A DNA stretch of 63,632 nt, the filler included, from Welwitschia mirabilis (taxonomy: Eukaryota), in the NCBI GenBank assembly GCA_051453625.1. It is 5 parts of one record of this genome, joined end to end, with 100 filler letters (N's around TTAATTAATTAA, not from the genome) between each part and the next. Parts side by side here need not be neighbours in the genome. Positions count along the whole stretch, not along the records: positions 39,816 to 56,218 come from JBOZIK010000001.1; 4 more parts are not named here. The stretch is one strand, 5' to 3'. The notes below the pieces were generated by a model, which saw nothing but the letters and a program-made list of their open reading frames with translations, was not told where the DNA came from and searched no databases. This document shows, piece after piece, positions 1,639-56,218 of this stretch. The translations under genes and the position numbers were made by a program. Each line of letters starts with the position of its first letter. The first letter of the stretch is position 1.

Positions 1639-1641
1639 CTT

Positions 1642-6790: not shown

Positions 6791-8220
6791 NNNNNNNNNN
6801 NNNNNNNNNNNNNNNNNNNNNNNNNNNNNNNNNNNNNNNNNNNNNNNNNNNNNNNNNNNNNNNNNNNNNNNNNNNNNNNNNNNNNNNNNNNNNNNNNNNN
6901 NNNNNNNNNNNNNNNNNNNNNNNNNNNNNNNNNNNNNNNNNNNNNNNNNNNNNNNNNNNNNNNNNNNNNNNNNNNNNNNNNNNNNNNNNNNNNNNNNNNN
7001 NNNNNNNNNNNNNNNNNNNNNNNNNNNNNNNNNNNNNNNNNNNNNNNNNNNNNNNNNNNNNNNNNNNNNNNNNNNNNNNNNNNNNNNNNNNNNNNNNNNN
7101 NNNNNNNNNNNNNNNNNNNNNNNNNNNNNNNNNNNNNNNNNNNNNNNNNNNNNNNNNNNNNNNNNNNNNNNNNNNNNNNNNNNNNNNNNNNNNNNNNNNN
7201 NNNNNNNNNNNNNNNNNNNNNNNNNNNNNNNNNNNNNNNNNNNNNNNNNNNNNNNNNNNNNNNNNNNNNNNNNNNNNNNNNNNNNNNNNNNNNNNNNNNN
7301 NNNNNNNNNNNNNNNNNNNNNNNNNNNNNNNNNNNNNNNNNNNNNNNNNNNNNNNNNNNNNNNNNAATTTTAATACTTGTCTCCATCTTAGAAATGAACT
7401 GGGGGTTATCTCACCATTCTATGGCTAATTGTAGGATGGTTAATGAGATCCTTAATTCAATCAACCAGAGAAGGTCTGTCGACTGGCTTTAAAACTCAGT
7501 TGTTTGGACCCTCTAAGTTCTATAGCTATCCTAGTGAAACTATAGAATGGGAATTTTATTGTTACTCCTTGCTTTCATCTCTGTATTCTATTTTTCTAAT
7601 TTCTTTTTATATGTAAACCTTTGTGCTCTCCNNNNNNNNNNNNNNNNNNNNNNNNNNNNNNNNNNNNNNNNNNNNNNNNNNNNNNNNNNNNNNNNNNNNN
7701 NNNNNNNNNNNNNNNNNNNNNNNNNNNNNNNTTCTTTTTATATGTAAACCTTTGTGCTCTCCTTTTTCATTAATGTTAAAAGGAGAAGAATTAGTTGTTA
7801 AATGGTTTTTCTTATGTAATGAAATCTACATGTACTTTTCTATTATACACTAAATTGCTTTTAATTGGTATCTCAAATATTTTTGTTCTTATGCAAATCA
7901 TATGTGCTTAGCATGTTTTTCATGTTTCTCTATTTATATCATATTTTAAAATCTTCTAATATTAGAAATGAATTCTAAAATATGACATCTGATCAAAGTG
8001 TTAAATAGTTTACATGATCAAATTATGCTTTCCATAAATTTGCACCATTAACCTTTCAAATATGCATATTAAATTTATTTCATTTCAAGCACAAAATTTT
8101 ATTGTTTAAAATGTCTTAACATGTTTAAAAAGGTGTATTATTTTGTAATAAGCATTTTGTAAGAATGATCTTTTCTAAGTCCATATGTTTCACAACTAAG
8201 TATTATTTGCCATTAATGTC

Positions 8221-8232
8221 AAAAGGGGGAGA
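8221..8232 (+). promoter_or_regulatory. Polypurine tract of copia element
   Basis: aaaagggggaga directly precedes the LTR-initial TG at 8234. Confidence 0.9.
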
Positions 8233-8233
8233 T

Positions 8234-9720
8234 TGTTAGATTATGTTGTATTAATTGATCTTAAACTAATGTTCTCTGTATAGCAAATTTTATGTATCCT
8301 AATTAAAAGATGTTAATTACTTGTAGGTTGAAAGGTGAAACCAAAACCATTAAATTCTGAGCATTGGAAACCTATCAGTATTTTACCTTATTGAGGGGTC
8401 GATCAAACTTTCAAGGGATTGACCACACCTAAAGCAAATAGACTAAAATGAACTGCATCTAGAGGGGTTGACTGAATTTCTTATGGGGTCGACTAGACCT
8501 GTAACCCTGAGAACCTAAGTCCTTAGACTAAATGAAAAGGATTCAACTGAATCCTTATGGGGTTAACTAGATTTGAGAACCTGATAAATAGTATCCCTAA
8601 ACTAAATAATAAGGGTTAACTGAATTTATGATGGGATCAACTTGACCTAAGTACTGTGAAGCTAATACTTTTAAGGGGTTAACTATACCTATGAAGGGAT
8701 TGACCAGACCTAATGCTAGAGACGAGAAAGAATTTTATCAGCATGAGAAAGTGACCAAATTATGTAGTGGGTGATTGGACTAGAGTCAACCAAATCCATA
8801 TGGGGTCAATTAAACATGAAGCTATAAGAAATTAAGGCAACCAAAATTCCCACTTGGGTAACCTGTGTAAGTCATGGCACTAGATGGAGTCACTGTACTT
8901 TTGAGGGGTCAACCAGATGGAGTCACTGTATTCATTATATAGCTATTTGATAGCCATTTTCTAGTCATTTATAGCCATTAGAAGCACATTTCAAATGTAA
9001 TAAATCCTAAAAGCCTTTTAATATAAATAGTCAAGAGATACATAACCATAGAACCTTTTTAGAACTATTTTTAATTGTGTCAATCTATTAGATCAAAGNN
9101 NNNNNNNNNNNNNNNNNNNNNNNNNNNNNNNNNNNNNNNNNNNNNNNNNNNNNNNNNNNNNNNNNNNNNNNNNNNNNNNNNNNNNNNNNNNNNNNNNNNN
9201 NNNNNNNNNNNNNNNNNNNNNNNNNNNNNNNNNNNNNNNNNNNNNNNNNNNNNNNNNNNNNNNNNNNNNNNNNNNNNNNNNNNNNNNNNNNNNNNNNNNN
9301 NNNNNNNNNNNNNNNNNTACTTTGCATTCTGAAAGGTTGTGATTAAGCCTTGAAAAGTATGTTTAAAGGTTGAGACTAAGCCTAGAAAAGTCAAATTATA
9401 AAGGTTACAGATGAACTTAGAATACCTAGTGGAGTAACAAAGATCTAGATCCTGTTTGGGAATAAGCTGATCATCAAGAGTGGAGTGGGAGATTTTCCAA
9501 ACCACTATAAATCTTATGTTCTTCTCATTGGTACTTTTTTACTTTTAATTATTATTTATTTACTTCTATTATTTTCCTATTTCATGTACATTTTGAATTA
9601 GTTAATTATTGTATGCAAGTTTTATTCAAAATTAGATTTATTTCGAACATTGTGTTGTCTATTTTTAAAGAACCTATTCATCCCCCTTTAAGGTTCTTGA
9701 TCCTATCAGTTTACTTTGAA
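8234..9720 (+). repeat. 3' LTR of copia element
   Basis: Starts TGTTAG after the PPT and is homologous to 1-1638. C-rich cctattcatccccct near the end. Exact end is ambiguous (9708-9720). Confidence 0.88.
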
Positions 9721-12191
9721 TTTAATAGATCTTTATNNNNNNNNNNNNNNNNNNNNNNNNNNNNNNNNNNNNNNNNNNNNNNNNNNNNNNNNNNNNNNNN
9801 NNNNNNNNNNNNNNNNNNNNNNNNNNNNNNNNNNNNNNNNNNNNNNNNNNNNNNNNNNNNNNNNNNNNNNNNNNNNNNNNNNNNNNNNNNNNNNNNNNNN
9901 NNNNNNNNNNNNNNNNNNNNNNNNNNNNNNNNNNNNNNNNNNNNNNNNNNNNNNNNNNNNNNNNNNNNNNNNNNNNNNNNNNNNNNNNNNNNNNNNNNNN
10001 NNNNNNNNNNNNNNNNNNNNNNNNNNNNNNNNNNNNNNNCCTTTAAGGTTCTTGATCATATCAGTTTACTTTGAATTTAATAGATCTTTATAGATTTTAC
10101 TTCTTTTACCTTTAACATCCTAGTATCTTATATATCTTAGATTCTATATATGCTCCATTTGATCCTCAAATAATACCATTTTACACCCTATGTATGATTC
10201 TATTTTTATTTTGGAGGAGAGTAATCATTTGAATTTTGGGTTGAGTGAATAAAATAGTGTTCTTTTTAAGATGACTCATTTGAATTTTGATTTCATAAAT
10301 ATTTTGGCTAAATAATGAGATAAATTTATTTTTGTAAATAAAATAGATACCCATAAGCATGGTGTGGCTACTTTCAATTTTGTAACTCCCTATTATGTTG
10401 CTTAAAGATAACTTATTACTTATTGCACCTTCCACCATGATCACTCTAGGAAGATTTCTTATTATGCCATATACTTAATCTCTTTTATTGAGGTATTTCT
10501 TGTGATTATGGCTCTACTATTTACTCATCTACATTAGCACAACTTATTCATCTTAAAAGAGGTAAATATAGGGGAACATATTTTAATGGTTATGTGTTTC
10601 TAAGACTGTACTTTATAAGAACTAGGCCTAGAAGATTTTAATCATATTTTTCTTCTTTATTTAATTCTTTTTTTTTTTTACTATCCTTAAAAAATGTACC
10701 TTATCAACCCTTACTTTATTCACACTCTTTTAGTGCAATGAAAAGAGAAGGTTTAAGTTCTTATAATCTTAGGAATTTTTTTGAGGGTACTTTCTCTATT
10801 TTATTTGAGGTAATGATTTTATTTTATTATTCTTTTAATAATAATATAACATTAGTTAGGGATTTTATTTGTATGGTGTGTAGATCAATAGAGTAATTAC
10901 TTCTAGTTCACAAGGCTTCTTACATCATCATGAGATTAAGGAAGTGGTGTAGCTAATTCCTTGTAAGATACCTGATAAGGATTTACCCCTTAGCTTTTAT
11001 CATCATACTTATATTCACAAGTATATTTTTATTCTTTATTATTTTATTATGAATGTGGCTTTATTTCTTGCCTATTTTCCTTTTAGAAAAAGTAAGTGCT
11101 CTTGATTCGTTTATAGGATTTAAAGACTTTGCCTATCACAAATGCGAAGGAGGTAAAGTTTGCTTTCTTACATGCTTTAGAAGATTTAAAATAGCTGAGG
11201 TAGCAAGATATTATAGTAAATTATTCCATATTCTCCTTTTCCTTCATCTTTTTAAGATCACTTTTAAACTTAAACCTAGATCTTAATAATGATATTTTGG
11301 ATTTCAATAATCTACTATCCTAGGGAAACATGTTATATTTCAATTTTTATTTTTCTTCTTCTATGTTGTAGTATCCATTGGTTATGAAACATGTTCTATA
11401 ATATTTTCCTTTCCCTCCTCTTATAGTTAGGAGCATAGCTAAAGTAATAAATCAAATCATGTACTAGACAAATTAGATGCTCTTAGTGCTAGGTTTCAAG
11501 CTCTTTAATATATGCTTTATACCAAATTTTTAGACCAAATTAGAAAGTTTCAAGCTCTTTAATATATGCTTTATACTTGAGTAACTCATTATTCACAAGT
11601 AGATGATGTTTATTCATTTCATCATTCTCATGCTACCAATTTTTCTTATGACTATAAAGGAGTTGTAGGAGTCATTTCATTCTTCATTTTACTCCCCAGT
11701 AAGAATGGTTATAGTAGGTAAAGAATTTTTATGATCTAACAGATATGATAAAATATTTCTACTACATGATCCACCATGGGATTGAGTAGCAAAAAACCAC
11801 AAATAACACCATTTTCATGCTTAAGATAATGTCATTTTCTCTGTATCTATCTAAATATAATATTTTTCTATTTATAATAGTCCTCTTTATTTTTGAAAAA
11901 TGAAGTAAGAAATTTATGCCTTTATGAAAAGAAATCAAGGATGGATACTTCTTAATTAACATCTTTGGAAGCCAAGCATGCAAAATTTTTGCATGGTTGA
12001 CAAAGAGCAAGTAGATGATTTGTACTTGTTTTAGTTATTTGACTTATACCATAGATGATATTATAGCCATATATATCATAGTGGTGAGCTACCTTGGAAG
12101 CATTTGTTAGATGCTTTAGTAGCCTAGAGTAAACTTTAAATGAAGTTATACTGGAAGCCTTTTCTAATTTCTTCTGAGTTAGATAAAGCAT

Positions 12192-13937
12192 TGTTGTAAT
12201 GCCAAATTATATGTATTTGATAAGGTATTCTGTATAATTTTGCAGTACATTAGACAAGTTTATTCTGAGTCTTGATGATAATGAAGAGCTAAGAAAATTA
12301 TCAAAAAAACATGCAATCTTCATTATATTTGATAGCATTTAAGGCAAATTGTAATAACTCTTATCTAAAGCAGAAATATGGTAATCAAAGAGGCTAATCT
12401 AATATAAGAAACATATTTATGAAGCCCATCATCCTCCCTATCATTTAGATGATAGTACAAATGATAGAAGAACTTATTCTTACTAGAACACTTACTAGAC
12501 CAAACTAACAACTGATGTGGATCCTATATGATATGGAATCATCTTATATAACTTCTAAATAACTAGTAGGATAACACCTAAAATAACTTTTTACTAGAGT
12601 TTATCAAACTTTTACCATGCATCCTGTTCCTTCTTATGTGGCCATTAAGGTTTTACTACATTTGTTAGTGTTTGCTATTTTTGGAGTCTTATTTATAATA
12701 AATAACTCCTTCATCCTCAACTTTAATTTTATCTTCTTTGGCATTAAAAATTCTTGTGATAAGAGATTGAAAGGTAGGAGATCCATCTTTTATTATTATA
12801 GAGAAACATATTCCTTAATGTTGGGNNNNNNNNNNNNAAATACTTCCTATCTAAAGTAGAAATATTGTAATAAAAGAGGTTGATTTGATACAAAACACAT
12901 CTTTAAAAAAGCCCATCATCCACATTATTATCTAGATGATAACACAGATGATAGAAGAACTCATGCTGACTAGGACACTTACTAGACCAATCTAGTAGTT
13001 GATGTGGATCTTGTATGATATTGAATTATCTCCTGTGATATCTGAACAACCAGTAAGATGATACCTAAAAATAATAGTTTATAAAACTTTATTAAACTTT
13101 TGCCATGTATCATGTGCCTTTTTGAATGACTTTTAGGGTTTTACCACATATGTGAGTATTTGCTATTTGTAGAGTCTTTGTTTGTAATAAATATCTCATT
13201 CATCCTTGACTTAAATTTTATCTTCTTTGGAACTAAAAATTAGTGGGATAGGAGATTAAAGAGTAGGAGATCCATCTTTTATTATTGTAGAGAAACATAT
13301 TCCTTAATGTTGGGTTGTGTATCCTTTATTGAGGTGCTACTACTTTGTAACATAGATGTGGATTCCAATATACCAGAAACTCTATTTTTCCTTTTGTATC
13401 TTTTATTATATACATATGTCTTATGGTTTATGTTTCTTATGATTTCATGATAGCTGCATTTATAATGTAGATTAAAAGGGAAACCTTCGTTAAGATTGGT
13501 ACTAGTAGTCTAGGTGCATTACATTTTATTTTCTAGATTAACTTGAATTGTTTTTATATTTTTTTAACGCAATATATAGCTTAGGTTAGTCTTGGTATGG
13601 TAATGGATTTCCTTAATTGATTAGGTTATACAGGGTTAATCTCTATGATAGGTTGATTTGGTAATTAAATAGATGTTGCATTTAGCTTAGTATTACATAT
13701 TGTTTTTATAGTATATTTACTTACATTGTTTACTTTGCATTATTATTTTGTTCTATTCATAAAATACATAAAAATTTTATTTGAGATCATTTCTCTTTAT
13801 TCTCTCTTGTGCCTTTAATGAGTTATGACATTCGAGTCACTTTCATCTATATCAATGTGTTGTGTTTTGTAATATATATTTGTTATTAATAGGATTTAAT
13901 AAGAATGTGAAAGACTATATACATACACACCACAACA
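12192..13937 (+). repeat. Athila-like LTR, family A, copy A1 (5' LTR; includes a diverged ~470-bp duplication across a 12-N gap)
   Basis: tgttgt...cacaaca inverted termini. Start is homologous to 45638 onward; 3' half is homologous to 16560-16933 plus 33170-33773. Followed by a PBS. Confidence 0.8.
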
Positions 13938-13940
13938 TAT

Positions 13941-13958
13941 TAGCACCATTACTGAGAA
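13941..13958 (+). promoter_or_regulatory. Degenerate Athila-type PBS
   Basis: tagcaccattactgagaa differs from TGGCGCCGTTGCCGGGGA only by G>A and C>T transitions and lies 3 nt after the LTR end. Confidence 0.7.
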
Positions 13959-14429
13959 AGGCTATAAGGAGTTTGAGGATTATCATTACCTAGATAAATG
14001 CTTTGAATTTCAATTTAGGTATTTGTTTGTGATATTATTATATTCTTATTACAAATATCATATTTTTTCTTCTTGCATTTTTCTTTTTTAAATTCGTGTT
14101 TTCTAAACTTATGATCCTGTCTGTCATCTAGAAGATATAGGGAATGATGATCTTCTTAGGTTTTTCTAAACTTGTGATCCTGTTAGGTTTTTTCTGATAT
14201 TTTTTTTAGTTTTTATTTTTTACCATAAAATAGCTTGCTATCATCTTCTTTGTCATTTAGATGACATAGGTGGATGACTATCAATTATTTTTTGCTTTAG
14301 TTCTATTACTGTTTTTCTTTATTCTTGGATTTCTATTTTCTATTTTGTATTTTTGGTTTTCTATGTAGTAGTCATCTAGGTAATTGTCCAGACGATGATA
14401 GAGATGATACTATAGAAACATCATTGAGC

Positions 14430-15340
14430 ATGCAAGAATGGGGTACACTCAAGTAAAAATATGAAGTATCAGAGGAACTAAAGACTAATTAAGGAAAATA
14501 TTAGAGAAGGTTTGGTTAACATCGAACTTAGCCTAAGTACATACACCTTAGATATGTAAAGACTTCCAAAAATTAAACAAACTTTTTCTAGCTTTCATTA
14601 TTTTAGAATCCAATTTTTTCAAAGAAAGTAACAGTGTGGGAGTGAATTATTTTTTTTTAAATCTATTTTAGATACAATACAAAAGCAAAAGCAAGTAGGA
14701 TCATCTAATACCCAATGATGATAAGAGCTTCTAATGTAAATACATCTAATGCAAATATTAAACTTAAAGATTTAATGGTCCATAGAAAACATGACATCCA
14801 AAACCCTTTTGACTTACTTTTCAATGATAAGGTAGAGTTAAAAAAATTTAAATATCTAACCAACATTTTTAAGACAACCTAATGAAGATCCTTTTCAACA
14901 TTTCGTTGACATAGAATAATTAGTGCTTATTTTAGGAAATAGAAAAAAACAAATTAGTGATAAAACCTACATGATTATGTTTCCTATCACACTTATAGAT
15001 AAAGCAAAACTTTAGCTTAAAACCATACCTTATAAAAGTATTAAAACCTGGAGTCAAGTATAAGATGTTTTTATCAAATGGTTCATGAGTGAGAGCACTA
15101 TGAGAAAAAGAAGAAAAGAAGTTACAAATTTCCAACCACAACCTAGTGAAGACTATGTCGTGATATATGAATAATTCATTATAACTACAAATTCCAAGTC
15201 CATTAATGAATTCCCTAAAGAGCAATTAATAGATTATTTTTATAGTGGGTTGATGGATGGTTATGTGGTGAAATAAATGCAAAAAATATTATAAAATAAT
15301 AAAAATAGTGCTAGAAAAATTTATAAACTATGCTGCTATT
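14430..15340 (+). pseudogene. Gypsy gag remnant of element A1
   Basis: PTF..PNEDPFQHF (~14860-14905) and QLIDYFYSGL (~15223-15252) resemble the gag at 20035-20520. Heavily disrupted. Confidence 0.7.
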
Positions 15341-16559
15341 AACCTTAAAAATATCACACCATTAGATAAAAATAATCAAAGGTTTACTAAAGAACTAGTT
15401 AATATTTAGCCATTTAGTTCAAAACGCATCATCACAATTATATCATAACAAAATTACTTGAACTAGTCAAGTTAGTTTATTACTACTAACTTGTTATGTA
15501 CATATATTATAATAAGAAGAAATGAAGAAAGTAATAAACCATGCTATAAATTAAATGAGATGCTAAACAATACTTATTTCTAATTGCTATTAATTATTCT
15601 AGTTTATGTTGAATTGCATAAATAGCAACAAATAGAAATAGTATTACCTTTTCAAGTAGTAGAACATGCACAAAATGATACTAGAAATATGATTTTTAGC
15701 TTAATACTAAAATATCAATTATTACATGAAGATGCAATATTGCGTTTACCTTTTTAGGTAATACTTTAGAGTATGGAAGATACTACTGCGCCCTTATTAT
15801 AATCCAAATTGTATGTTTTTAATGGGAAATTTTGAGTAGTTTTGTAAGAAATTTAGATAGGTTTAAGCACAAAACAACGATTATTGAGAGTTAAGGATAA
15901 AATTACAAAAATTCACAAATGCAAATTCTTTTGGATGAATTTAGGATTAATCCTAATAGTTCATATTTTCAGTAGAAAGTAANNNNNNNNNNNNNNNNNN
16001 NNNNNNNNNNNNNNNNNNNNNNNNNNNNNNNNNNNNNNNNNNNNNNNNNNNNNNNNNNNNNNNNNNNNNNNNNNNNNNNNNNNNNNNNNNNNNNNNNNNN
16101 NNNNNNNNNNNNNNNNNNNNNNNNNNNNNNNNNNNNNNNNNNNNNNNNNNNNNNNNNNNNNNNNNNNNNNNNNNNNNNNNNNNNNNNNNNNNNNNNNNNN
16201 NNNNNNNNNNNNNNNNNNNNNNNNNNNNNNNNNNNNNNNNNNNNNNNNNNNNNNNNNNNNNNNNNNNNNNNNNNNNNNNNNNNNNNNNNNNNNNNNNNNN
16301 NNNNNNNNNNNNNNNNNNNNNNNNNNNNNNNNNNNNNNNNNNNNNNNNNNNNNNNNNNNNNNNNNNNNNNNNNNNNNNNNNNNNNNNNNNNNNNNNNNNN
16401 NNNNNNNNNNNNNNNNNNNNNNNNNNNNNNNNNNNNNNNNNNNNNNNNNNNNNNNNNNNNNNNNNNNNNNNNNNNNNNNNNNNNNNNNNNNNNNNNNNNN
16501 NNNNNNNNNNNNNNNNNNNNNNNNNNNNNNNNNNNNNNNNNNNNNNNNNNNNNNNNNNN

Positions 16560-39815: not shown

Positions 39816-42047
39816 GATGATAGATAGTAGAAAGTTTGAGGTGGATTTCAAATTTTGTTAAATGTTTCTTGAAGACTTCACTAGTGTAATGAGTTCCTTT
39901 ATAGATATGAGGCTTTGAGGGGTTCTAAACTGATAGATAACATTTCCAAGAAAAAGTTAACTACAATTTAGAAAGAATATTTAGACATAGCCTTCGCCTT
40001 AGCCCGTTTAGTGAAGTAATCAATATAAATCAAAATATATCTTTTTCTAAAGCATGAATGATTAATAGATCTGATAAAATATATTCCCTAAACATCAAAA
40101 AATTCAATTAACCAAATAAATTATTATGGCATTTCTAATCTCTAGCTAAATGTGTCTTTACTTTGACACTTATCACAATCTTAAATATAAGCATTTAAAT
40201 CTTTGAATATGGTGGGACAGTAGTTTTCCACATAGAGAATTTTCATCCTTATTCTTCTTGCATTATAATGTTCTCCTCGTCCTCCTTCATGAACTTCCTT
40301 TAAGATCTTACCTTGTAGGTTTTTTACTATATATCTTCTAATAACATGATCTTTGCATTTTCTAAATGACATCTTATCATGCCACATATAATATCTAGAT
40401 TCCCTTAGTAATCTTCTTCTTTTGTAGTAATTCATAAAATATGGTAATTTTTTGCTCACAAAAAAGTTAGCTATGTCAGCATACTATGGATTTGTTTTTA
40501 TCTAAAAAAGATGTTCAACTAGAAACTCATCACTTATATTTATTTTTTTCTTCATTTAAAAATTCTAACCTTGAGAGGTAATCTGCTACTAAATTTTCTA
40601 TCCCTTTCGTATCAATATTTTTAAGTTAAACTCCTACATCAATAGTATCCCTCTCATAGTTTTTGAGTTTGCTTCTTTCTTGTTTAAGAAAAATCTAATA
40701 GCACTATGGTATGTATGAAATTTTACTTTGTAACATAAAATATAATGCTTAAATTTATCTAATAGCACCACCACTACAAACAATACTTTCTCTGTTACTG
40801 TGTAGTTTTTATAATTGGTTTGAAGTTTTTAATAATATACACAATGGCAAATACGTATAAGCCATAATATGAAATAGTTTTGTCTAATCTGATCCTTACA
40901 AACTAGGTGTTGATAAAATTTGATCCTTTAAGGTTTAGTAAGCATTTTGACATTTATCAATATAGCCATATTTCACATCCTTTTGTAAACGATTACTCAA
41001 ACATTTAGCAATTTTATTGAAGTTAGATATGAATCTTCTATAATATTCAATATGTCTTAAGAAATATCTTAATTCTTTTAGCTTGGTTGAGGATGAAATA
41101 TATTTTATAGCTTTAATTTTCTATTTATTAGTTTTAATCCCTTTTTGAGATATCTTATGTCATAGCACTATGTCTTCTGTCACCATAAGATGACTTTTCA
41201 ACTAGCTAATTCTAAGGTGTTTTTCTTTACATCTCTATAAAACTTTTCTAGTCTATTGAATGAATCCCAAAAATCATTTTCAAAAGTTAAAAATCATCCA
41301 TAAATACTTTACTTGATCATCCTATCATATCTTAAAAATGCTATTTACTAATCTTTAAAAAGTAGTGGGAATACTACATAGTCTAAATGGTAATACCTTA
41401 TAAGAATAGGTACCCCAATGACAAGTGAAAGCCATTTTGGCTTGGTCCTCTAAAGTTATAGGGAATTTGTTATAGCCACTATATTCATCCCAAAAATTAT
41501 AGTATTAATATCCAAATACTCTTTCTAAGACTTAATCTATAAATAAAAGGGAAAAATGATCCTTCTAGTTTTCAACATTCAAAAGTCTATACATAATCTT
41601 AATTTATTTCTTTTATTTGATACAACTTTGATAGGACTAATTCATTTTAAATCAGATATAGAATAAATGAATTCCATATCTATCAGTTTAAAATTTTTTG
41701 ATTTAATTACTTATTGAATTTATGGGTTACATTTTCTTTCTAATTACCTACTCTCTTTGACAGAGGTATTTAAATAAATCTTATGTTAACATATTTTTGG
41801 ATCTATTCTTTTAAGCAAAAGATCCCTTCATTTTTTCCAACATCCTTTTAAGTTTTATATTTTAAAAATGAGTTAAATAACTATTTATGATTACAAATCT
41901 ATTTAGAGGTACTTTGATATACTCTAATTCTTTATTAGGTAGAGGCTTTTCTATTTCTTGAGTTGTTAAATTTTCCTCCTCATAGGTTTCTTCATTTTAT
42001 TTATTTAACATCATACTAACTTCCTATGTTAGAATTGCGTTGATTCT
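39816..42047 (-). pseudogene. Minus-strand gypsy pol remnant (RT, RNase H, integrase; element E)
   Basis: KVFMDDF (~41291-41310), SGYNK, WGTYSY..LPFRL, NYTVTEK, ENLVADYLSRLE, ILKEVHEG..G.HY. Confidence 0.9.
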
Positions 42048-42667
42048 CACTACAAAAAATACAAGGTTTTAAGGTATTTCTAAAATGCCTTACAAGATCT
42101 TAAAAAATGCCTTAAATGTTTTTAAGACATTCCTTCATAAAACACTTTAAAAAATATCATCTTAAAAGCTAATTAAATTTTAAGGCATTTTAATAATAAT
42201 TTCTTAAAATAGCTTTGAGGCATTTTCCAAAGGCATTTCTTTGAAAAAATGTCGGCCTTTTAAGGTGTTTCTTTGGAAAATGCCTTAAAAGCAGTTTTGA
42301 GGTGTTTATCAAATAAAAGCCTCAAAATGCATTACCTAGAAAAAAATAATAAAATAAATACATCAAATATTATTTTCTAATATGCAATCAATTATTTGTT
42401 TTTTAATTTTTTTATTTAAAATCTTTGTGCAAAGAATGAATGTAACTTTAACTGACATCTATTGATTTTATTAAGTAATATCCCTTTATTTTTAGTTTTT
42501 AATGGTCTTATTTATATCTTCAAGTGTTCAGGCTTATTTTCATAATTAAAAACTTTAAAAATAAAAAAGAATTAAAGATGGTTCTCACAAGCTACTTTAG
42601 TAAGATAACTAAAGCTAAAGCCAAAGCCAATCTACATTATTATAAAATAGATAGGAGTATCATCTAC

Positions 42668-42734
42668 CTAGCAAGAATTTATAACTATTTATAACTATTA
42701 TATCAGCCCCTGCTTCCATGTACTCCATGCGTAC
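42668..42734 (-). pseudogene. HMT: Captured exon of homocysteine S-methyltransferase
   Basis: After removing a 10-bp tandem duplication it reads VRMEYMEAGADIIVINSC* (57 nt), compared with the plant HMT motif VHLEYLEAGADIIITASYQ. GT donor intact; acceptor AG decayed to AA. Confidence 0.8.
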
Positions 42735-45637
42735 TTGAGATAATAATCAATAATCATAGTCATGTTTTAATAATCATAGTTAAATTTTCATATTAAAATT
42801 CATAAAGATAACAAAGTGCCTAATAATAATTCAAGAGAAAATATCATAAAGAGACATTATTATCACTAAGCAAAAAGGTGTCATTGCATTCAAAACCAGT
42901 AGGATATTTAAGAGAAATAACAAATCATCTATTTAATTGATTTAATATTAATAATTATAACTTTGTATCTTTATTACACATAATGGACATGGCCCATGAG
43001 GTTTATGCTCAGGTGCAATGTCTTTGGCTTATAAAACCTAAGACAAATCCATTACTATCCATTTATAAGCACGTTGATGATATGCCTGGGTAGTAAAGAG
43101 TAATAAATTTGAGAGTATTCTCCATTAGCATAGCTATGAAGAGCTCTAACCACTCACTATGACCACAACAATATGACTGTATACTTTAGACTATTTCTTG
43201 CAATGTTGTTGATCATGCCTGTAACCTAGATGCAAGACGTTATTTAGATTCCTTATAATGCTACGTTATAGGTTTTCACTTTCAATAATAAAAGAACATG
43301 GTTGATAGAGACTTGAGGTAAAGCTTATTTTAATAGGAGAGACACTCTTCAAGATAGAGAAAAAGCCATTAAACAATGGTTTAGGTTAGGTCGTTATCCA
43401 TAAAAATTCATGCTATGGTTATCAAAAGTTGTTAGAGCAATGATAGATAGAAAATCCCCATAGAACAAATATAAAAAAGATCTTCAAATAACATGCCTTA
43501 TAGAAGGATACTCATAAGCTCACACGGGGAATAACTAATGCATCTTCTTAAAACTCAAGTAGAGCTTCGACTTTAACCTATTCTCCTAAGAATTTAGTAG
43601 TTGATCAACATTAGATGAATCAAGATGAGTAATAATAAGAGGTTTTAAATAATTTTAGGACATTTCTAATTCTAATTTTAGTAACTAAATTTATTGAATC
43701 ACTTCTAGATAATATAGTTTTATCAATTTTTATTATATTTCTTATATTACCAAACTCAAAATAAACTTTCTTTTTTTAATTTTAATGAGTCTAGTTGACT
43801 ACTCAAGAATGTTCTTACCATCAAATGCCTCATGTCATCTACCATTTCTTAGAATCTGCTATGATGAGGGGGCTTTATAAGAAATCAAAAATCAGGAGTT
43901 GGAAAACCATGTTTTTAAACCTTAGATGTGTAATCCTAGAAGATAATGATAAGGAATACAACATTTCCAAGCCATCTACAAATTAAAAGGAAAAAAAATG
44001 TAATAGTTCATTTGAAATTAGATTCCTAAATGAAGAAACATTACTTAAAAAAGACTAGAGGATAATGAAGAACATACGATTCATGAAAAACAGCAATTAC
44101 GAAAAGGGATATAATTGTTCATTTGAAATCTATAAAAATATGATGGATTATTTGGTGAAATTTAAAAAATTATCATTGTTCCATTTATCTATCCCTCTTT
44201 CTTGTTTAGTGCTATTTTAAGTAGCAACATACTTTTCATAGCTAACATTAAAGTGTTATTACTAATATTCAATGTTAAAGTAGATGCTGCTTAGTAGTAT
44301 TTTTTGAAAGCCAAAAGTAAAAATGCTTAAATAGAAGTAAATTTATCTAAAGAACAACTTAAGAGGTGTTATAAGTATGTGTTTTATGAAGAGATGATAT
44401 AATCTTAAATTTTCATGTTTAATAACTAAGGAATTTCACTAAATTTAAAATGATTATAAAATAATTAGTACATAAATGACAATCAATGTCTCAAAATCTA
44501 GTTTTTCAGGGCATGTAAGAGGTAACACATTCTGAAAAAACATTTTAACTTGCTATTTACAAATAAGGAAATACTAAATATTAGCCATTTTATCCATGTT
44601 TTTATTTTATATCAGCTTACATAGAAGATATATAAGACCCTACCTAAAAGCACTAAGATTTTAAGGTCCATTATCTTATGATAGTTGTTTGCATTTTCTA
44701 TATACTTGTTTAGGAATCTCAGATATTTGTAATTTAATAAGCTACGTCCCATGCTACTAAGAACATTGATTAATGTCTATGCTACTAAGAACACTAATTA
44801 ATGTCTAAGGATAGTTATACAACTCTTCTAGTAAAGAATGATGACATTTTGATTTAAACTCAAAGCTGTTTAATCCAAGTAAAAGAAAAGATGTTCTAAC
44901 ACTCTATTGGTTTGTTATAACATCTATACTTAGGGGTTGTATCATAGTCATGGATCCTCTATAGATCTTAAAAGTTGTACTTGATTCCATACAAGGTAAA
45001 GCAATTTAGTGTCATCTCTCTACATCCTTTCATTTTCATTAAAGACCTATGAATGAAACTAATAAGAACATTAGAATTCAAATTCTTGGATCCCCTTCTT
45101 GTTGCCTTTTTTCTTAATAGGTATTTGTGAAATGGTTAGATTTAATCAGTTACCTACATCATCATGAGCATAAGCAAAAAGTACTATGGTATAATGGAAA
45201 AGTACATTAATGATACTATTTGCAATTTCACATCATTTGCAAGTTATTATCTATTTTTAATTTTTTATATAGCTAAAGTCTATACCTTATAATAAATTTT
45301 TCAAATATAATCAGAATGCCAAGTTTTTGTGCCTAGTTTGGCCTAAAAATGAATGAAGCTATTTGAGAGAAGGGCTTTTCACCATTAACATGGACTCGAT
45401 ATCTTTAACAAAATCCACTATGATATTAGTACATATGTTGTGTATCACTTATTTCCATATAATACACTATTACTTAGTTAAAGTAGTAAATACCATCCTT
45501 ATTTTTTAAGATTTTTCCATTCATTACTATATGTAACTATCTATTCATGTTATATAGCCACTACTATATAATAAGTATATATATATGTTTGAGAGATTAT
45601 TAAAGATTTGTATATATTTATTTATGTAATAGTTATA

Positions 45638-46087
45638 TGTTGTGACACCAACTTAAGTATATTTGATAGGGTATTTATAGATAAACTAATAGATAAATGC
45701 TCACTTCCTATGACAATTAAGAATCCAGAAGCACAAGACAAAAACATGAAGTTTATTAGATAATTCACGAGGATATTCTATAGATATGGATAAATTGTAT
45801 TTTTAGATGATTATTTCTGCAAACAACCAGATATCAAACTGACAGAAGATATATAGAAGACTGTCGTCCCCTATGTCATCCAGATGATAGTCAGGATGAT
45901 AACCTTAATTCGACAGATGATAGACTTAATTCCAAATAGACTTAATTCCAAATAGCTTGCAGTTGAAGTGAAGATCTTATTGTTAGACTCCATTGTCCAC
46001 CTAATCGTCTAGACGATACTTGTGGATGACATCTCCAAAATCAGTCAATAATAGTTTACATGAAGATCACAGATAGTTAAACTAGAA
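45638..46087 (+). repeat. 5' part of a family A-like LTR inserted within the CACTA element (ends at a gap)
   Basis: tgttgtgacaccaacttaagtatatttgatagggtatt resembles 12192 onward; contains (g/a)tcatc.agatgata motifs seen in the A LTRs. Confidence 0.6.
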
Positions 46088-46842
46088 NNNNNNNNNNNNN
46101 NNNNNNNNNNNNNNNNNNNNNNNNNNNNNNNNNNNNNNNNNNNNNNNNNNNNNNNNNNNNNNNNNNNNNNNNNNNNNNNNNNNNNNNGTAGTAAAGCCAT
46201 TGCTAGGTAAGTATTAGAGAAATCCCATAAAAATAGTGTGCTTCTACTTAAGCTAATCAAGCCTCTATTAAAGAGTTTATCAGAGGACCACTATGTGAGA
46301 GATGAAAGGAACACTATCTTTTATTAAAGGATCCCATTGTGTACAAGCCATTCAACATCTTCAGGTTGTACATAACATCATCTTCAAAGAAAATCTAGTA
46401 ATAGAGTATGCAGAGTACTTCCTCATCTTTGAAGTTATTAACCATGTGTGTTTTTTCTAGAAATATTCTTAGTGCAAAAATTATAATAATGGAATAGTAG
46501 TGCCTTTGAAAAATCAACCTGTGCCTATGAAAGTAAAGATACTACTACTTTAATGAAAACTTTGTTAACTCTTTATATTAATGCTACTCCAAAATGTGCT
46601 TTTTTATGATTTTTATGATGAATAATATCATTTTGTGAAAAGTAGTAGTAGAAAGTAAACTTATGAGAAACATAGTATTAACAAGTTTCTTTTTAATTAA
46701 AAAATTATAATAGTAATTCTAGAAAATAGACTTTCAAAGACATTAAAAATAAATCAATGTAGATAAATGTCTGGAGACAAAAGTCAAGGTGAGAATCTTC
46801 TTATAGTTTAACTTTTATGAGATAAGACAAATTGATACTCAC

Positions 46843-47013
46843 TTGTGTGGATCACCATGAAGCATTGGTATCTCAAGGTACCATTCTAATTTGAAAGCTT
46901 TATCATCCTTTACTATAAGTCTCTAGTGCTCTAAACCAGATTCATGTCGATCCTCTTTACTACCACTCATAACATGCAATCTTCCTTTTCAAAGTTGTAT
47001 GACTAGTGCATAT
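46843..47013 (-). pseudogene. Captured exon of a kelch-repeat protein (At3g27220/At1g51540-like)
   Basis: AG|..YALVIQL*KGRLHVMSGSKEDRHESGLEH*RLIVKDDKAFKLEWYLEIPMLHGDPH..|GTGAGT, compared with recalled YAPATQLWRGRLHVMGGSKENRH.PGLEHWSLAVKDGKALE.EWR.EIPIPRGGPHR. Both stops replace Trp codons. Confidence 0.85.
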
Positions 47014-48082
47014 CTATTAAATTAAAACAAAACTAAGAAAATGAAGAATTAACATTAAATGTTACATAAACTAGATGAGATTTATTAGAATAATTAACAT
47101 CTAAAGCTGAATTAGTGAAGTATCCTAATGCAAGAAATAGAAAAGCTTGGAATATAAACTTATCTTCTTCAGTAGGTAAAATGTAATTTATTGGATGACT
47201 GGTCCTGATCATGTAGCTTCATTTCTCTTAGCATGAAATGCATAAAAATGCCTATTGTCCAATATAACTTATAAAATAATCCAAATAGAAACATATTATG
47301 GAGATAATTAAATAGGTACCACACCATGGCTCCAGTTAGTAATAGAAGAGATGATTTGTTCACTTGTAAATTTGGAGGAATCCTCAGTTTTGTTCAATGG
47401 AAACTCAACCCCTATTCTGAAACCATGTTTCCCATAATTAATAAAATGAAATTCATTTCAAGAGAGTAAAATACATGGAGGTAACATGAATATTTTATTT
47501 TAGAAAATTGTTGGATAAATAATTAAAAATATAGTAATCTTATAAAATATAAGAAAAACTAAAAATAATACATATGAATTTAAGTAACTTACATATGGTA
47601 CATGTACATGTTCAAATAGTAAACCAAAGAAATCCTTGTACATGTTCATATACATTTCATTGGTCTTTTTTGGCATGCTTGTTACAAAGCACTTTGCATT
47701 TTCAAACTCATATGGAAAATTATTTCCATGTTTCTGATTCTTAAAAATCTGAATGAATTCTTAGCATGTTTGAATACTAACATTAGAGTTTTGAACTTCT
47801 TACTTAAGTGTCACTTTAATATAAACTTTCTGTTAACTAAAGGTTTTATCCAATCATATACTATAATATGGTAGCACATCTAGTATGTTTGTACTTGAAA
47901 GGAGCTTCATAAGCAACCCATCTAGAAGACATTAAGGTGTAACAGTTACTATAATACTATAATGAGATGGAAATCCATAGTTCTAATTTAAAGCATATGC
48001 TAGACTCACTTTTAGTTTGAGAAAAGCCTTCAAAGAACTAGTACTTACACACTTAAAGGAGAAAGTGGTAAAAAAGATATAC

Positions 48083-48431
48083 CTTGAGGAATCTCTTATC
48101 ATACAATCTGCACCCCAAGTCAACCATTCTCTCACAATACTTGGATAAGCTCCTTTAGTAGTAAGATATAGAGGGATGCTTCCAGGTTTTCTAAAATTAA
48201 TGGAAAAGATGGATCTAAGTGAAATTTATCCTCCATAAAAGTTGCTAAGAGAGATTATAAAGTAAGGAAGACTTTTTAATGTCATACCAATCAGGATGTA
48301 TTGATGCATAGACGAAGGACTCATTTTTAAGGAGAAGGTGAACGGTTTGGAGATGTCTCATTCTTGATGCAAGATGTAAGGAAGTTACTCCATATTCATC
48401 TTTTACATTAACATAAAATAAAAAACCCATT
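48083..48431 (-). pseudogene. XBAT31: Two exons plus a 97-bp intron of an XB3/XBAT31-like ankyrin-repeat RING E3 ligase
   Basis: Exon ~48431-48288: GFLFYVNVKDEYGVTSLHLASRMRHLQTVHLLLKNESFVYAS. GT..AG intron 48287-48191. Exon 48190-48083: KPGSIPLYLTTKGAYPSIVREWLTWGADCMIRDSS|GT. Compare XB3 GFARFVNIRDG.GATPLHLAARQ...PGSTPLHLAARGGSLDCIRELLAWGADRLQRDASG. Confidence 0.8.
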
Positions 48432-49633
48432 CATTCACATAACCAATTAGTTTATGCACTTATAGGCCACTTCTTCTTAAAATTTTTATGATAAATGTCA
48501 AACTCTATATGCTCTGGTTTATAAAAATAGGAAAACAATATTGGCAAAACTACTGAATAGCTTATCATTATTTTCAAAACCCTACATTTTTAAGAGGATA
48601 AATGAAAATACAATATAAAATAGTAGAAAAGGAAAAAACTCTAGCATATGAAAATTACCATGAATGTCGAATAATGCATTTGTATAAGTGATCAACATTA
48701 TAGGTTGAGGATTCAATGCTGCTAAGGCCATTGAGGCCATAGGAGTGGAATGAAAGAGAGGAAAAATTATATTCACCTTATAATTAAACATAATTTAAAA
48801 AAATAATCAATATTAAATTTAGAGACCCTTTACCTAGTATAAGAAAAGTCCAGTGTAGGATGGAAAATTTGTATTCTTAGCTTGTGTAAACAACTTTTAA
48901 TCTATTTTAATAAATAAGCTTCTTGTAGAAATACAAATGCATAAGAAGATCAAAGAAGAGAGGAAGCTAAAGATAGAAAAACTAACTCCTAAAAACATTT
49001 TAAAATAAATGCATTCAGACAAATTTAAGAAACTATGTTTCACTTGAAACATCATCAAAAGATACACTTCCTACGATGCTTTCAGAATTGTAAATTATTC
49101 ATATTGAAAGCTAAAACCAGTTATACTTTTAATACATAAATACTAGACTACAAGTGTTCTTCCATCTTTTAAATACCATGAGTGGAGTGATAATAGCTTG
49201 CCTAGTGATGTGTCAGTAACAAACAAGCAGAGCAGTAATTATGTATGTCACTGGATTCACAACATGAAATAATGTTCTCATGATAGTATGGGTTAGGTTT
49301 ATTGTTGACAACATGCGCATGGCTTTTTTTTTATGATCATAGATTTTACAGTGTTTATCTTATTACATGCCTTAGAAATCTAATACCTTTTATGATGTTT
49401 ATTCTATTAAGTGCCTTAGAAGACCATAAATATTTAAGGCATTGATTTATAAATGCCTTGAAAAACATTTAAGCGTGGGATTTTAAGGTGTTTATTTAGA
49501 AAATTCATTAAAATAATTATATGTTTTTGTTTCTAAGATGTTTATTGAAATAAAGGCTTTTAAGATCTTCTGAGGCATCATTGAAAAAGGTAAAGGATCT
49601 TTTGAGGCATCATCTACTAATTTTCTCTTAGTA

Positions 49634-49993
49634 TCTTTATCTTCATTATCTAGAGGATTGTCTATATTTGTGGCATTCTTCTCTAGTTCATATGTCACCT
49701 TCTATTTTCTAGATCTAGTAGTAACTTCTTTACTTGTTGCTTTTTTAGGATTTGGTTTAGGTTGAGCAAAGATTTTTATCATCTTTTTTCTCTACTATAA
49801 TTTTTCTCTCATGCTCTTGGAATCTCTATTTTTCTAATTTCCATAATAATCATATTACACTTAACATTTTGAAATAACATATTTTTATAATGGTCCTTCT
49901 ATTTATCTTCTCATTTTCTACTTTGATAAGGATATGATTTGTTTCTAGTTTTAGGTTAATTTCCTAAATTTAAATTTAATCTATTAATATCAA
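49634..49993 (-). pseudogene. Minus-strand gypsy gag C-terminal fragment
   Basis: AQPKPNPKKATSKEVTTRSRK resembles the PSQP..NPK...KAITTRSGK motif of gypsy gag. Confidence 0.55.
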
Positions 49994-51020
49994 TGTTGTG
50001 ATGCAAATTTATGCTTCTAATTCAAATATTCTAAAGATCAAGCTTAACTCAAAATATTTTAAAAGCTAATAATCTGATTACATACAATACACATTTATAT
50101 AATGGGATCAACTCAAATGTTGTGTACTTAGAGAATACTTCTAAAAGAGAATTTGGAACATTGATTTAGAGAGAAAAGAATGATATATTTGCTTAATAGA
50201 AAATAAAATTAAAGAATGTAAAGATAAAGATGGAATGCAATGTAATAAATGAAATTTTAATGTAATGGATTAATTAAACTTCCAATCTACTATCATTTAG
50301 ATTGGCCCTTATANNNNNNNNNNNNNNNNNNNNNNNNNNNNNNNNNNNNNNNNNNNNNNNNNNNNNNNNNNNNNNNNNNNNNNNNNNNNNNNNNNNNNNN
50401 NNNNNNNNNNNNNNNNNNNNNNNNNNNNNNNNNNNNNNNNNNNNNNNNNNNNNNNNNNNNNNNNNNNNNNNNNNNNNNNNNNNNNNNNNNNNNNNNNNNN
50501 NNNNNNNNNNNNNNNNNNNNNNNNNNNNNNNNNNNNNNNNNNNNNNNNNNNNNNNNNNNNNNNNNNNNNNNNNNNNNNNNNNNNNNNNNNNNNNNNNNNN
50601 NNNNNNNNNNNNNNNNNNNNNNNNNNNNNNNNNNNNNNNNNNNNNNNNNNNNNNNNNNNNNNNNNNNNNNNNNNNNNNNNNNNNNNNNNNNNNNNNNNNN
50701 NNNNNNNNNNNNNNNNNNNNNNNNNNNNNNNNNNNNNNNNNNNNNNNNNNNNNNNNNNNNNNNNNNNNNNNNNNNNNNNNNNNNNNNNNNNNNNNNNNNN
50801 NNNNNNNNNNNNNNNNNNNNNNNNNNNNNNNNNNNNNNNNNNNNNNNNNNNNNNNNNNNNNNNNNNNNNNNNNNNNNNNNNNNNNNNNNNNNNNNNNNNN
50901 NNNNNNNNNNNNNNNNNNNNNNNNNNNNNNNNATTTGCATAAATCCCTACAACAACCTGTTAATAGGACCTAAAAATGTACTTCACAAGGTATTAAATAG
51001 ATTAAGTTGACATCACAACA
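49994..51020 (-). repeat. 3' LTR of element D (its first part is repeated at 51743-51830)
   Basis: Perfect 10-bp inverted termini tgttgtgatg/catcacaaca. On the minus strand it is preceded by the PPT-like ttaagtgagggacta (51021-51035). Confidence 0.8.
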
Positions 51021-54000
51021 TAGTCCCTCACTTAATATTTGTTAGTTCCTAAAAGAGTAAGCAAATAACAAGTTGTGAGCTAACTATAAAAAAGAAATTC
51101 AAAACTTGTATATCATTTATCATTAAGAGTATAACATGTGAAATACATATATGAAAAAGCATAAGTAAAATTGATGTATATTATGAATCATTAAGTTTAA
51201 CATCATAGAAAAGTTGTATAAGTCATAAAGAAAAGGTAAATTATAGTAATATTTCATGATTGTAAGGTGAANNNNNNNNNNNNNNNNNNNNNNNNNNNNN
51301 NNNNNNNNNNNNNNNNNNNNNNNNNNNNNNNNNNNNNNNNNNNNNNNNNNNNNNNNNNNNNNNNNNNNNNNAAAAGATGATTTTGAATATTTATAGGTTG
51401 GGATAGGTTGCTAAAGGTGTGAAACAAAGAGTTATGAGTTAGATCCACCATTTCATAATAATTTGATTAAGTTTACAAATAATTTTAACCATCTTCTATT
51501 ATGTCATCCTCATGACAAAGAGGATGACACCTCAACTAATTCTTAGTACATGTTAAAAATGCTGACTGTCATCCTAATCGTCGTCTCCATGATACAAAGG
51601 ATGACCATATCCTCTTTTATTTCCATGACATGGAGGATGACTAATATATCTTCATCACATTCCTTTGGTTCATCAGCATTCAAAAATATCTTCTTATTTG
51701 GAAAATTATTACATCTTTTAACCTATATGAAATGTTTATAGAATTTGCATAAATCCCTAGAACAACCTGTTAATAGGACCTAAAAATGTACTTCACAATG
51801 TATTAAATAGGTTAAGTTGGCATCACAACATAGTCCCTTACTTAATATTTGTTAGTTCCTAAAAAAATAAGCAAATAACAAGTTGTGAGCCAACTGTAAA
51901 AAAGAAATTCAAAACTTTTATATCATTTATCATTAAGAGTATAACATGTGAAATACATATATGAAAAATCATAAGTAAAATTGATGTATATTATGAATCA
52001 TTAACATCACAGAAAAGTTGTATANNNNNNNNNNNNNNNNNNNNNNNNNNNNNNNNNNNNNNNNNNNNNNNNNNNNNNAAAGAATAGGTTATAAAAAGAG
52101 AGATTTTTAAAAGAAAGGAGAGCATCAATACTATCATGCGAAAGGATGGTCAAGGCAGAGATAAGAAACTAACTTTGAAAAGACAAACCCTCAAACTAAG
52201 ATAAGACAAAAAGAAAAATAGATAATATAGAACATGGATAAGATTAATATTTTGCCTTAAATTCAAACTTAGTAAAATTTCTTAGTATGGTTATAAAACT
52301 ACTTGCTATAGAAATGCATGATTCAATGTAGAACATCATAGAGTACAATTTGAAAGGGTAGTGATGATGACAATATCTAATGATTATATTTAGAAATTTA
52401 TCAAGTCATGTTTGGATTATGATTTAATCCCTCTTCAGCTATGACAATCATAGTACTTTGATAAGATATCATTCAATATCATATTTTCATGAAGTCTGTG
52501 CCTCAAAGTAATGGAAGTTTTAGTTAATAAGGTGTTAATCAATACTATTAATCATAATGAGGGAAGNNNNNNNNNNNNNNNNNNNNNNNNNNNNNNNNNN
52601 NNNNNNNNNNNNNNNNNNNNNNNNNNNNNNNNNNNNNNNNNNNNNNNNNNNNNNNNNNNNNNNNNNATGATTATATTTAGCAATTTATCAAGTCATGTTT
52701 GGATTATGATTTAATCCCTCTTCAGCTATGACAACCATAGTACTTTGATAAGATATCATTCAATAAGTAATAAGAATATTTTCATGAAGTTTGTGCCTCA
52801 AAGTAATGGAAGTTTTAGTTAATAAGGTGTTAATCAATACTATTAATCATAATGAGGGAAGTGCAACCACTGCCAAGAGAATAAGAACTTATAAGTTAAA
52901 GCTAGATCATGGCTAACTAATCCTCTAGTAGAGTTTCCACAACTACCATATCATACTGCTAAAGGCTACTCTTGGGAAAATTTACCTCGGTATGCTTGTA
53001 GTAGTACATCATAATATAATTGTAAGAGGATGATTTATTTTTCTTTTTCTTTTCTTTTCTTTTCTTTTTTTCATATTTCCCTTTTACTTTTCATTTTTTT
53101 ATTCTTTTTCATTGACTTAGAACTCTCATTTTTGATAGTATTGATTAATCATTAGAATGATAAGGTAGTAAGTATATGGCTAAAAGCAAGCATCTGATTA
53201 ACATAATTGATATTTTTTTATAAAATAACTAAGGAGATCGATTGTAGATATTGGAATATATTAGGATTAGCTGAATCTAATCTTTATCAGATGAAAAAGC
53301 CAAAGTAAAGAATTACTTAATCATTATAACACCTATGAGAGTCAAACATAAATCGAGTTAAAGATGATCAAGTAATCTCATAACTTAAACCAAGAAATAA
53401 AGCTAAGAAAACATTTAGTAGATGGCCAAGATAAGATCTTTCTTTTTGCAAAGAGGATCTTCCAAGTTAATTTTTTCTATCATGTTCAAGGTATAAAAAA
53501 AATCATCTAGAGATGTATAAAGTTTTAGCCTTTGTCCATTTAATCTTTGGATTTCTTGAGTTTGAAGATCAGAGATCTTAATAGAGCCATTAGAATATAC
53601 CTTTTTCATATAATAAGGACCAAGCCATTTGGAGGTTAGCTTGTTATGTATAGGATGTGCTCAAGTATTATGAAAAGGAACAAATTAACCTGTGTCTATT
53701 AGTTTAGTAATTTTATACTTAATTACTAGCTTAATGATAGAATTAAGTAAGGATTTTTATTGGGAAGGGTGAAGTTGAGAACGAATGATCAATGGCTTAT
53801 TATGAGTGTTATTTAAGAAAATGTATTTCAAGCCATTGGATAAGTCTTTATGTTGAAGATTATTTTCATCCTTCATGGNNNNNNNNNNNNNNNNNNNNNN
53901 NNNNNNNNNNNNNNNNNNNNNNNNNNNNNNNNNNNNNNNNNNNNNNNNNNNNNNNNNNNNNNNNNNNNNNNNNNNNNNNNNNNNNNNNNNNNNNNNNNNN

Positions 54001-56036: not shown

Positions 56037-56218
56037 CACTATAATAATTATATGCATTTAATGCATTTATTAGAATAAATGCCTTAATTAAAGAATTTTT
56101 AAGGTATTTTTTTGAATAAATTCCTTAAAATACTTCATAATGAAGTTTCTAAGGCATTTATGAAAAAGTACCTTAAAAATAAGTGGGATTTTAATTTGTT
56201 AAGGTGTTTAAAAAATAA
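56037..56218. mobile_element. Second CACTA terminus of the same family, truncated by a linker gap
   Basis: CACTATAATAA at the point where the gag of D stops, followed by aaatgccttaa, ttaaggtattt, taaggcattt, aagtaccttaa and ttaaggtgttt repeats. Confidence 0.7.

Follow-up and report, generated by a model that had tools for sequence, protein, structure and literature searches.

A probable decayed Pack-type CACTA element carrying host gene exons in Welwitschia mirabilis

The interval 42048-49633 of a 63,632-nucleotide stretch of Welwitschia mirabilis DNA (assembly GCA_051453625.1; this whole stretch is hereafter called the window, and all positions refer to it) probably represents a Pack-type CACTA (En/Spm-type) transposon, non-autonomous and decayed, that inserted into a Ty3/gypsy retroelement. 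The interval has a CACTA-type terminus, subterminal repeat clusters at both ends and matching trinucleotides on its flanks, and it contains no detectable transposase. It also contains exons of two unrelated gene families, an ankyrin-RING ligase of the XB3/XBAT31 type and a kelch-repeat gene, and its interior exists in several diverged copies. A preliminary description of this DNA had proposed a Pack-CACTA-like element with exons from at least three host genes. The element and two of the gene families are retained here (best E-values of 8e-16 for XB3/XBAT31 and 1.7e-17 for the single kelch exon). The third family, homocysteine S-methyltransferase (HMT), comes down to one 23-residue match at noise level.

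The two ends and their flanks

The left terminal inverted repeat (TIR) of the element is CACTACAAAAAA at 42048-42059 (plus strand). At the other extremity, positions 49622-49633 (minus strand) read TACTAAGAGAAA inward and can be regarded as a decayed right TIR: 8 of the 12 terminal bases are equal when the left end is compared with the reverse complement of the right end, and three of the four mismatches are transitions. The mirror arrangement extends further inward, where 25 of 31 nucleotides are equal in a subterminal block located past an 18-nt insertion that contains one extra motif copy, and where the arm 49558-49586 is 83% complementary to 42077-42105 (29 nt). The trinucleotide TCT borders the element on both sides, at 42045-42047 and 49634-49636, as expected for the two copies of a putative 3-bp target site duplication (TSD). 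By our estimate, a random pair of 3-mers of the window's composition agrees about 3% of the time.

Positions 40772 and 42048 are the only occurrences of the core word CACTACAA in the window, and the word is absent in reverse complement; by our estimate, about 1.6 occurrences are expected from composition. Its frequency is thus close to chance and the word alone proves nothing; what counts is its position, 21 nt outside a repeat cluster. The occurrence at 40772 lies inside the gypsy pol region, has no adjoining repeat cluster and is consistent with chance.

The left subterminal cluster (42060-42345) is composed of repeats of the AATGCCTTAA / TTAAGGCATT type with a 12-bp unit, and Tandem Repeats Finder reports the 12-bp unit AAAATGCCTTAA three times at 42082-42116. 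The right cluster (49335-49621) is supported by the motif count, by the mirrored arm and by a summed contig depth of 400-790. The motif was defined as the transition-tolerant 9-mer YYRAGGYRT or its complement and was scanned over the 55,839 non-N bases of the window. Among 33 occurrences in total, 7 fall within 42048-42345 and 6 within 49335-49633, on both strands, to be compared with about 0.09 expected per end region of about 300 bp; the 7-kb interior has two. The corresponding P values are optimistic because the motif was picked after inspection of the sequence. The CACTA terminus and the subterminal clusters at both ends are confirmed as first described. Both ends are taken as real, the right terminus being decayed. 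A rule asking for agreement with the left terminus in at least 8 of 12 bases, together with TCT, selects 11 of 55,216 window positions, and the probability that such a position falls by chance no more than about 60 nt away from the outermost right motif is about 1 in 100.

The same subterminal motif forms a second cluster at 56050-56218 (4 copies in 169 bp), which is ended by an N run. This segment is 72% similar to 49430-49513 in reversed orientation and probably represents one end of a further element belonging to this CACTA family.

The insertion target is recognizable on the left side. Positions 39816-42044 carry, on the minus strand, the decayed pol region of a Ty3/gypsy retroelement, in which a read-through frame matches the Pfam families RT_RNaseH (9.9e-09) and Integrase_H2C2 (1.4e-05). 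Summed contig depth in this left flank is 1,500-7,700, as compared with about 5 for single-copy pieces, and over both flanks it ranges from 1,100 to 16,000 in the two public DNA runs used. No domain was detected in the right flank, and no Rfam match was found in 39816-50313.

Host gene exons within the interval

The most extensive cargo is a fragment of an XB3/XBAT31-like gene, which consists of three colinear exons on the minus strand: exon a (48302-48427) and exon b (48083-48198), both coding for ankyrin repeat, and exon c (47864-47923). A GT..AG intron of 159 nt (48082-47924) is retained between exons b and c. The open reading frame (ORF) 48248-48430 matches Pfam Ank (E 2.3e-4) and designed ankyrin proteins in the PDB, and phmmer searches of the PDB with three minus-strand read-through frames returned designed ankyrin proteins only. 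A full HMMER search with ORF 47986-48225 gave 37 proteins, all of them repeat-rich ankyrin proteins. One of these (P0033, 461 residues) contains, besides Ank, the Pfam domain RING_XB3-XBAT31 (6.9e-21). Its residues 146-187, 201-252 and 243-253 are matched by the three exons, the last of these segments at 47896-47864. With P0021 as a query, tblastn (E 8e-16) aligned residues 23-61 with 48427-48311 and residues 94-147 with 48198-48052. Only the ankyrin part of the protein is represented, corresponding to residues 146-253 of P0033. The best candidate for a RING exon in the window (43010-42963) has an E-value of 3.4, and further XB3 exons were found nowhere in the window. A possible upstream exon in ORF 48585-48794 was rejected, since 158 of 500 shuffled sequences score equally high.

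RNA reads bear on the donor of this fragment. In two public RNA runs, of which a quarter each was read, reads map to 47868-47898, 48085-48139 and 48357-48416 with 90-95% similarity to the window, and they include a joint 47898/48085 with 25 extra letters. Nearly every one of them aligns with the window over part of its length only (177 of 179 reads in one run and 28 of 28 in the other). When translated by hand, their loose ends read TWGFAR before exon a, HLAARGGCL within exon b and LNPRFAGPL after exon c, and these peptides fit P0021 and P0033 at the corresponding positions. Because of this similarity level and of these loose ends, the reads are attributed to an expressed donor gene of the XB3 family and not to this copy of the element. 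On the basis of the best matches and of donor RNA continuing into XB3-like peptide, the predicted donor is assigned to the XB3/XBAT31 family.

The comparison between donor RNA and element also reveals the direction of decay. Over 47868-48416, 23 of 31 differences show T or A in the window and C or G in the donor (A>G or T>C), and one is of the opposite kind (G>A). Compared with the donor, it is the transposon copy that has lost C/G. These one-way differences fit cytosine deamination in a silenced copy, as well as the very low G+C content (about 25%) of the repeats of the window and of the genome; in the window itself, which is AT-rich, G+C ranges from 15 to 31% per 2 kb.

The second cargo is a complete exon of a kelch-repeat gene at 46842-47015 (minus strand), which carries two in-frame stops and both splice sites. 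It aligns by tblastn with residues 243-300 of L003 (47015-46842; 62% identity over 58 residues, E 1.7e-17). Its borders on the minus strand are an acceptor AG at 47015-47014 and a donor GTGAGT starting from 46842. L003 is a frame of 459 residues read from a TTG start. The 416 residues following its first ATG were scanned and match Kelch_1, Kelch_2 and Kelch_6 (1e-13 to 1e-17) together with propeller families, the whole set spanning 1e-13 to 1e-24. When the fragment 46842-46988 (with X at one stop) was compared with metagenomes, all nine loci found were 63-65% identical to it across all 49 residues. In six genomic-looking metagenome contigs (L004-L008 and L010), the matching residues form a single discrete exon, located between exons covering residues of about 167-243 and 300-337. 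The kelch cargo thus corresponds to exactly one captured exon with its borders.

By itself, this exon gives no Pfam match; it is a single exon and not a propeller. A word-indexed protein search with a 400-residue read-through of the kelch region gave no match at E up to 10, and in the same kind of search neither a 49-residue kelch query nor a 41-residue HMT query had three words in common with any candidate. A hidden Markov model (HMM) built from three homologues detected no other kelch exon among 413 ORF pieces. A second kelch piece, suspected by eye at 46251-46394, was discarded, having no support from Pfam, tblastn or the kelch HMM.

Of the splice sites that had been announced for the exons, those of the kelch exon and those of the XB3 intron between exons b and c are present. 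The retention of this intron and of the AG and GTGAGT borders of the kelch exon argues for a genomic, rather than a cDNA, origin of the cargo.

The third cargo is a weak candidate. A putative HMT exon fragment was delineated at 42663-42746 (minus strand). Its segment 42746-42678 matches Pfam PF02574 at profile positions 32-55 of 283 (E 0.0093) and NCBIfam NF007020 at positions 47-69 of 306 (E 0.015), with scores under the curated cut-offs (16.3 vs 22 bits for Pfam; 14.4 vs 215 for NCBIfam). With E. coli MmuM as a query, the best tblastn match of the window is also found there (residues 50-72; E 0.18 in the region, 1.5 in the window). The two profiles and MmuM thus all pick the same 23 residues at the same position of the family. 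It is more probable than not, but no better than that, that the fragment is an HMT exon. A phmmer search of the PDB with this exon retrieved only a designed TIM barrel, likewise matching the EAGADII core. A genome search with MmuM gave 80 loci, all of them enterobacterial genes 81-100% identical to the query, and no broader profile could be built from them. A Pfam scan of all 117 ORFs of at least 28 residues on both strands (E up to 0.1) brought up the Ank set again, along with S-methyl_trans (E 0.014) and five unrelated families with E-values of 0.004-0.041. Given 117 queries, this is the level expected by chance. One of the 117 ORFs matches the beta-propeller family Pep3_Vps18 with E 0.0041, better than HMT; about 0.5 such matches are expected by chance. 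Other HMT-like bits (47378-47325, 47247-47215, 45448-45316 and 43185-43066) were rejected, with tblastn E-values of 2-11 or nothing and no Pfam or NCBIfam match.

Two minus-strand frames, 47503-47760 (86 residues) and 47311-47457 (49 residues), are among the longest open frames and are located between the XB3 and kelch exons. They gave no Pfam, NCBIfam or PDB match. ESM Atlas provides leads that all score below 0.9, namely an mRNA-capping/snurportin-like one for the former (0.84) and a GH38 C-terminal one for the latter (0.88). These frames may be further cargo or chance frames.

As first described, the matches of the XB3, kelch and HMT-like pieces are all on the minus strand. It had been suggested that this shared orientation could reflect a capture bias. 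Nevertheless, the probability that three fragments lie on one strand is 1 in 4, so that the shared strand says nothing on such a bias.

Coherence of the interval and competing explanations

The element spans two contigs, 39816-46087 and 46188-50313, which are joined through a scaffold gap of 100 N at 46088-46187; this gap had already been noted and is confirmed by the listing of N runs. Since the contigs of the window are 0.25-6.6 kb long, any structure beyond a few kb depends on scaffolding. Many of the 44 N runs of the window are exactly 100 or 44 N long. At another such place, a near-identical sequence of about 190 bp is found on either side of a 100-N gap (52379-52566 and 52667-52860), which is either a tandem duplication or a pair of redundant assembler contig ends.

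Inside the element, the left contig ends in a very-high-copy repeat that runs into the gap (45416-46087), with a summed depth of 15,000-89,000 per bin and of 300,000-560,000 at 45804. Contigs extend beyond 46087 with letters unlike those from 46188 onward. Because of this hyper-abundant repeat and of these diverging contigs, the gap is interpreted as a repeat-induced break of unstated length. The segment 45416-46087 is either a nested insertion or a repeat-induced assembly break, and it has no Pfam or Rfam identity. It contains a 16-bp unit repeated 2.2 times at 45920-45955, and a few RNA reads fall on it.

This raises the possibility of a scaffolding chimera, in which a left contig (left end and HMT-like piece) and a right contig (kelch, XB3 and right end) from two family members or loci would have been misjoined over 45416-46087. 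The abundance of N runs, the adjoining repeat, the passage of contigs into other letters and the fact that no listed contig piece bridges 46088-46187 all favor such an event. It should, however, be noted that TCT is present on both outer flanks, that both flanks are very-high-copy, that there is one left-type and one right-type end in the mutual orientation expected, and that interior depth is alike on either side of the gap. None of these points is a proof; a misjoin is considered unlikely.

A second possibility, also unlikely and slightly more so, is that the captured fragments lie in a CACTA element that is, or once was, autonomous, and whose transposase would lie in the gap or would have decayed past recognition in the unassigned part of the interior. 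Autonomous CACTA elements are about 7.6 kb or larger. The interval is 7.6 kb long plus a gap of unstated size, and about 5 kb of its interior is without assignment. However, when 42048-49700 was scanned with Pfam in all six frames, read through stops (E up to 1-10), no transposase domain appeared and the matches were weak Ank only; no transposase family was found among the 117 ORFs. By comparison, RNaseH is still detected at 1e-8 in the gypsy flank, which is just as decayed, and the integrase of this flank, as well as the Ank and kelch exons, are still recognizable. The preliminary description was thus right in reporting no recognizable transposase. This absence holds for the sequenced letters, with the content of the gap 46088-46187 as a caveat.

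The copy state of the interior bears on a third possibility, according to which the interval would not be one mobile unit but host pseudogene debris lying between two unrelated CACTA end fragments. The pieces of the element locus itself have a depth of 3-7, several of them without differences in runs of both organism codes, whereas the sums for the interior bins are 10-160 once the nested repeat is set aside; such depths are not copy numbers. At the interior sites listed, including the non-exonic sites 44078 and 44509, 1-15 variant contigs per run show a letter other than that of the window. Since non-exonic sites are concerned too, the interior exists in several diverged copies. Within the window, neither the interior nor the flank junction was found a second time. 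The chance frequency of CACTACAA, the poor right terminus and the occurrence of isolated subterminal clusters such as 56050-56218 would suit debris, which in the model of Catoni et al. (2019) would be the precursor state that precedes joint mobilisation. On the other hand, the 3-bp flanks agree and the ends are mirrored. Moreover, non-exonic interior sites are under up to 11-15 variant contigs, which indicates that the interior itself is repeated. Finally, what is found within about 6 kb is single exons of unrelated genes, with no other kelch or XB3 exon in the window, and not decayed whole genes. The debris explanation is considered unlikely, and more so than the two preceding ones.

It can also be imagined that a small amplified family founded by the element shares the one-orientation XB3-kelch-HMT mosaic and that small RNAs from read-through or antisense transcription of its copies dampen the donors, among which the XB3-like ligase is clearly transcribed, or that a chimeric transcript with shuffled exons once came from an ancestral copy that was still intact; this is very improbable. 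In the quarter of each RNA run that was read, no read has at least 99% identity to the element and two have 95-99%, so that nothing points to the former chimeric transcript that had been proposed.

Several points weigh against the interpretation of 42048-49633 as a Pack-type CACTA element. The only connection between the two halves is a scaffold gap of 100 N, bordered by a hyper-abundant repeat. On the right side the terminus is degenerate, TTGTAGTG is absent from the entire window, and the rule used for the ends was fitted post hoc, after inspection of the sequence. An empty site, which would join 42047 to 49634, is not seen among the 15 of 175 joints listed. Summed contig depth is not copy number and may be inflated by short AT-rich matches. 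Finally, the HMT E-values are at noise level, amid those of the five unrelated families, and no origin could be assigned to about 5 kb of interior DNA.

Despite these points, a decayed Pack-type CACTA element remains the explanation that we consider probable. We infer that the whole interval moved as a single unit, that the two contigs belong together and that the cargo was acquired by a Pack-kind capture at the DNA level. In the mechanism that can be proposed, the CACTA terminal repeat and the subterminal arrays of about 12 bp, present in both orientations, would be the parts recognized by a CACTA transposase supplied in trans. Host genomic DNA would have been picked up piecemeal, yielding three XB3/XBAT31 exons with an intron, one kelch exon with its intron borders, probably one HMT exon and several kb of DNA of unassigned origin. 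Amplification of the cargo-bearing unit would then have brought it to between a handful and a few tens of copies. Finally, decay by C-to-T and G-to-A changes would have produced the stop codons in the exons and blurred the right terminus. The element has no evident present function.

Comparison with known CACTA and Pack-type elements

Like the element described here, Tgm-Express1 of soybean and Tpn1 of morning glory have En/Spm-type ends around several fragments of host genes, with introns retained. CACTA elements of soybean and morning glory are cited as examples in the introduction of the Arabidopsis study of Pack-CACTA (Catoni et al., 2019; PMC6379663). The definition of Pack-CACTA in that study combines CACTA1-like termini with a 3-bp duplication and with internal DNA from the host, part of which cannot be traced. 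The criteria of packFinder, as given by Gisby and Catoni (2022; PMC8903248), comprise a TIR, a TSD, cluster membership, a BLAST match to genes and no match to a transposase.

A literature search found no paper joining CACTA, homocysteine S-methyltransferase and gene fragments. For CACTA, XBAT31 and kelch, nothing relevant was present among the matches listed, the captured-gene tables of PMC8903248 and PMC6379663 being outside this search. The cargo combination had been put forward as possibly undescribed. However, multi-locus cargo is described as common in Pack-CACTA in the corresponding passages of Gisby and Catoni (2022; PMC8903248), and a new combination is therefore expected and not remarkable. 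The element is a real but ordinary feature of a well-known kind, whose multi-gene cargo has already been described. Its significance beyond annotation is small, as it adds one more case of exon capture of the CACTA type; left unmasked, it would wrongly be annotated as three pseudogenes or one chimeric gene. It nonetheless offers a clean example of capture at the DNA level, with a single kelch exon having both splice sites and an XB3 fragment having an intron. Moreover, the comparison of the expressed donor with the element copy gives a direct reading of directional decay, which fits the G+C content of about 25% of the repeats of this genome.

A close likeness is with Pack-CACTA1a and 2a of Arabidopsis (Catoni et al., 2019; PMC6379663), which share with the present element CACTA-type termini (the right one being putative here), a 3-bp TSD, the lack of a transposase and host-gene DNA of differing chromosomal origin, some of it untraceable. 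Differences are the sequence of the subterminal motif and the state of the elements: those of Arabidopsis are intact and transpose in epigenetic recombinant lines, whereas in the element here decay is heavy and the right terminus is blurred. The core of the Welwitschia terminus, CACTACAA, is the same eight letters as the core of the Arabidopsis CACTA TIR (Gisby and Catoni, 2022; PMC8903248). Within the rice and maize CACTA set of the latter study, TSDs are of 5 nt, as compared with the 3-nt flank match found here. In maize, Pack-CACTA elements contain more distinct captured loci than any other Pack-TYPE group and form a low-copy family (Gisby and Catoni, 2022; PMC8903248), which agrees with a multi-gene, low-copy element such as the one proposed here for Welwitschia.

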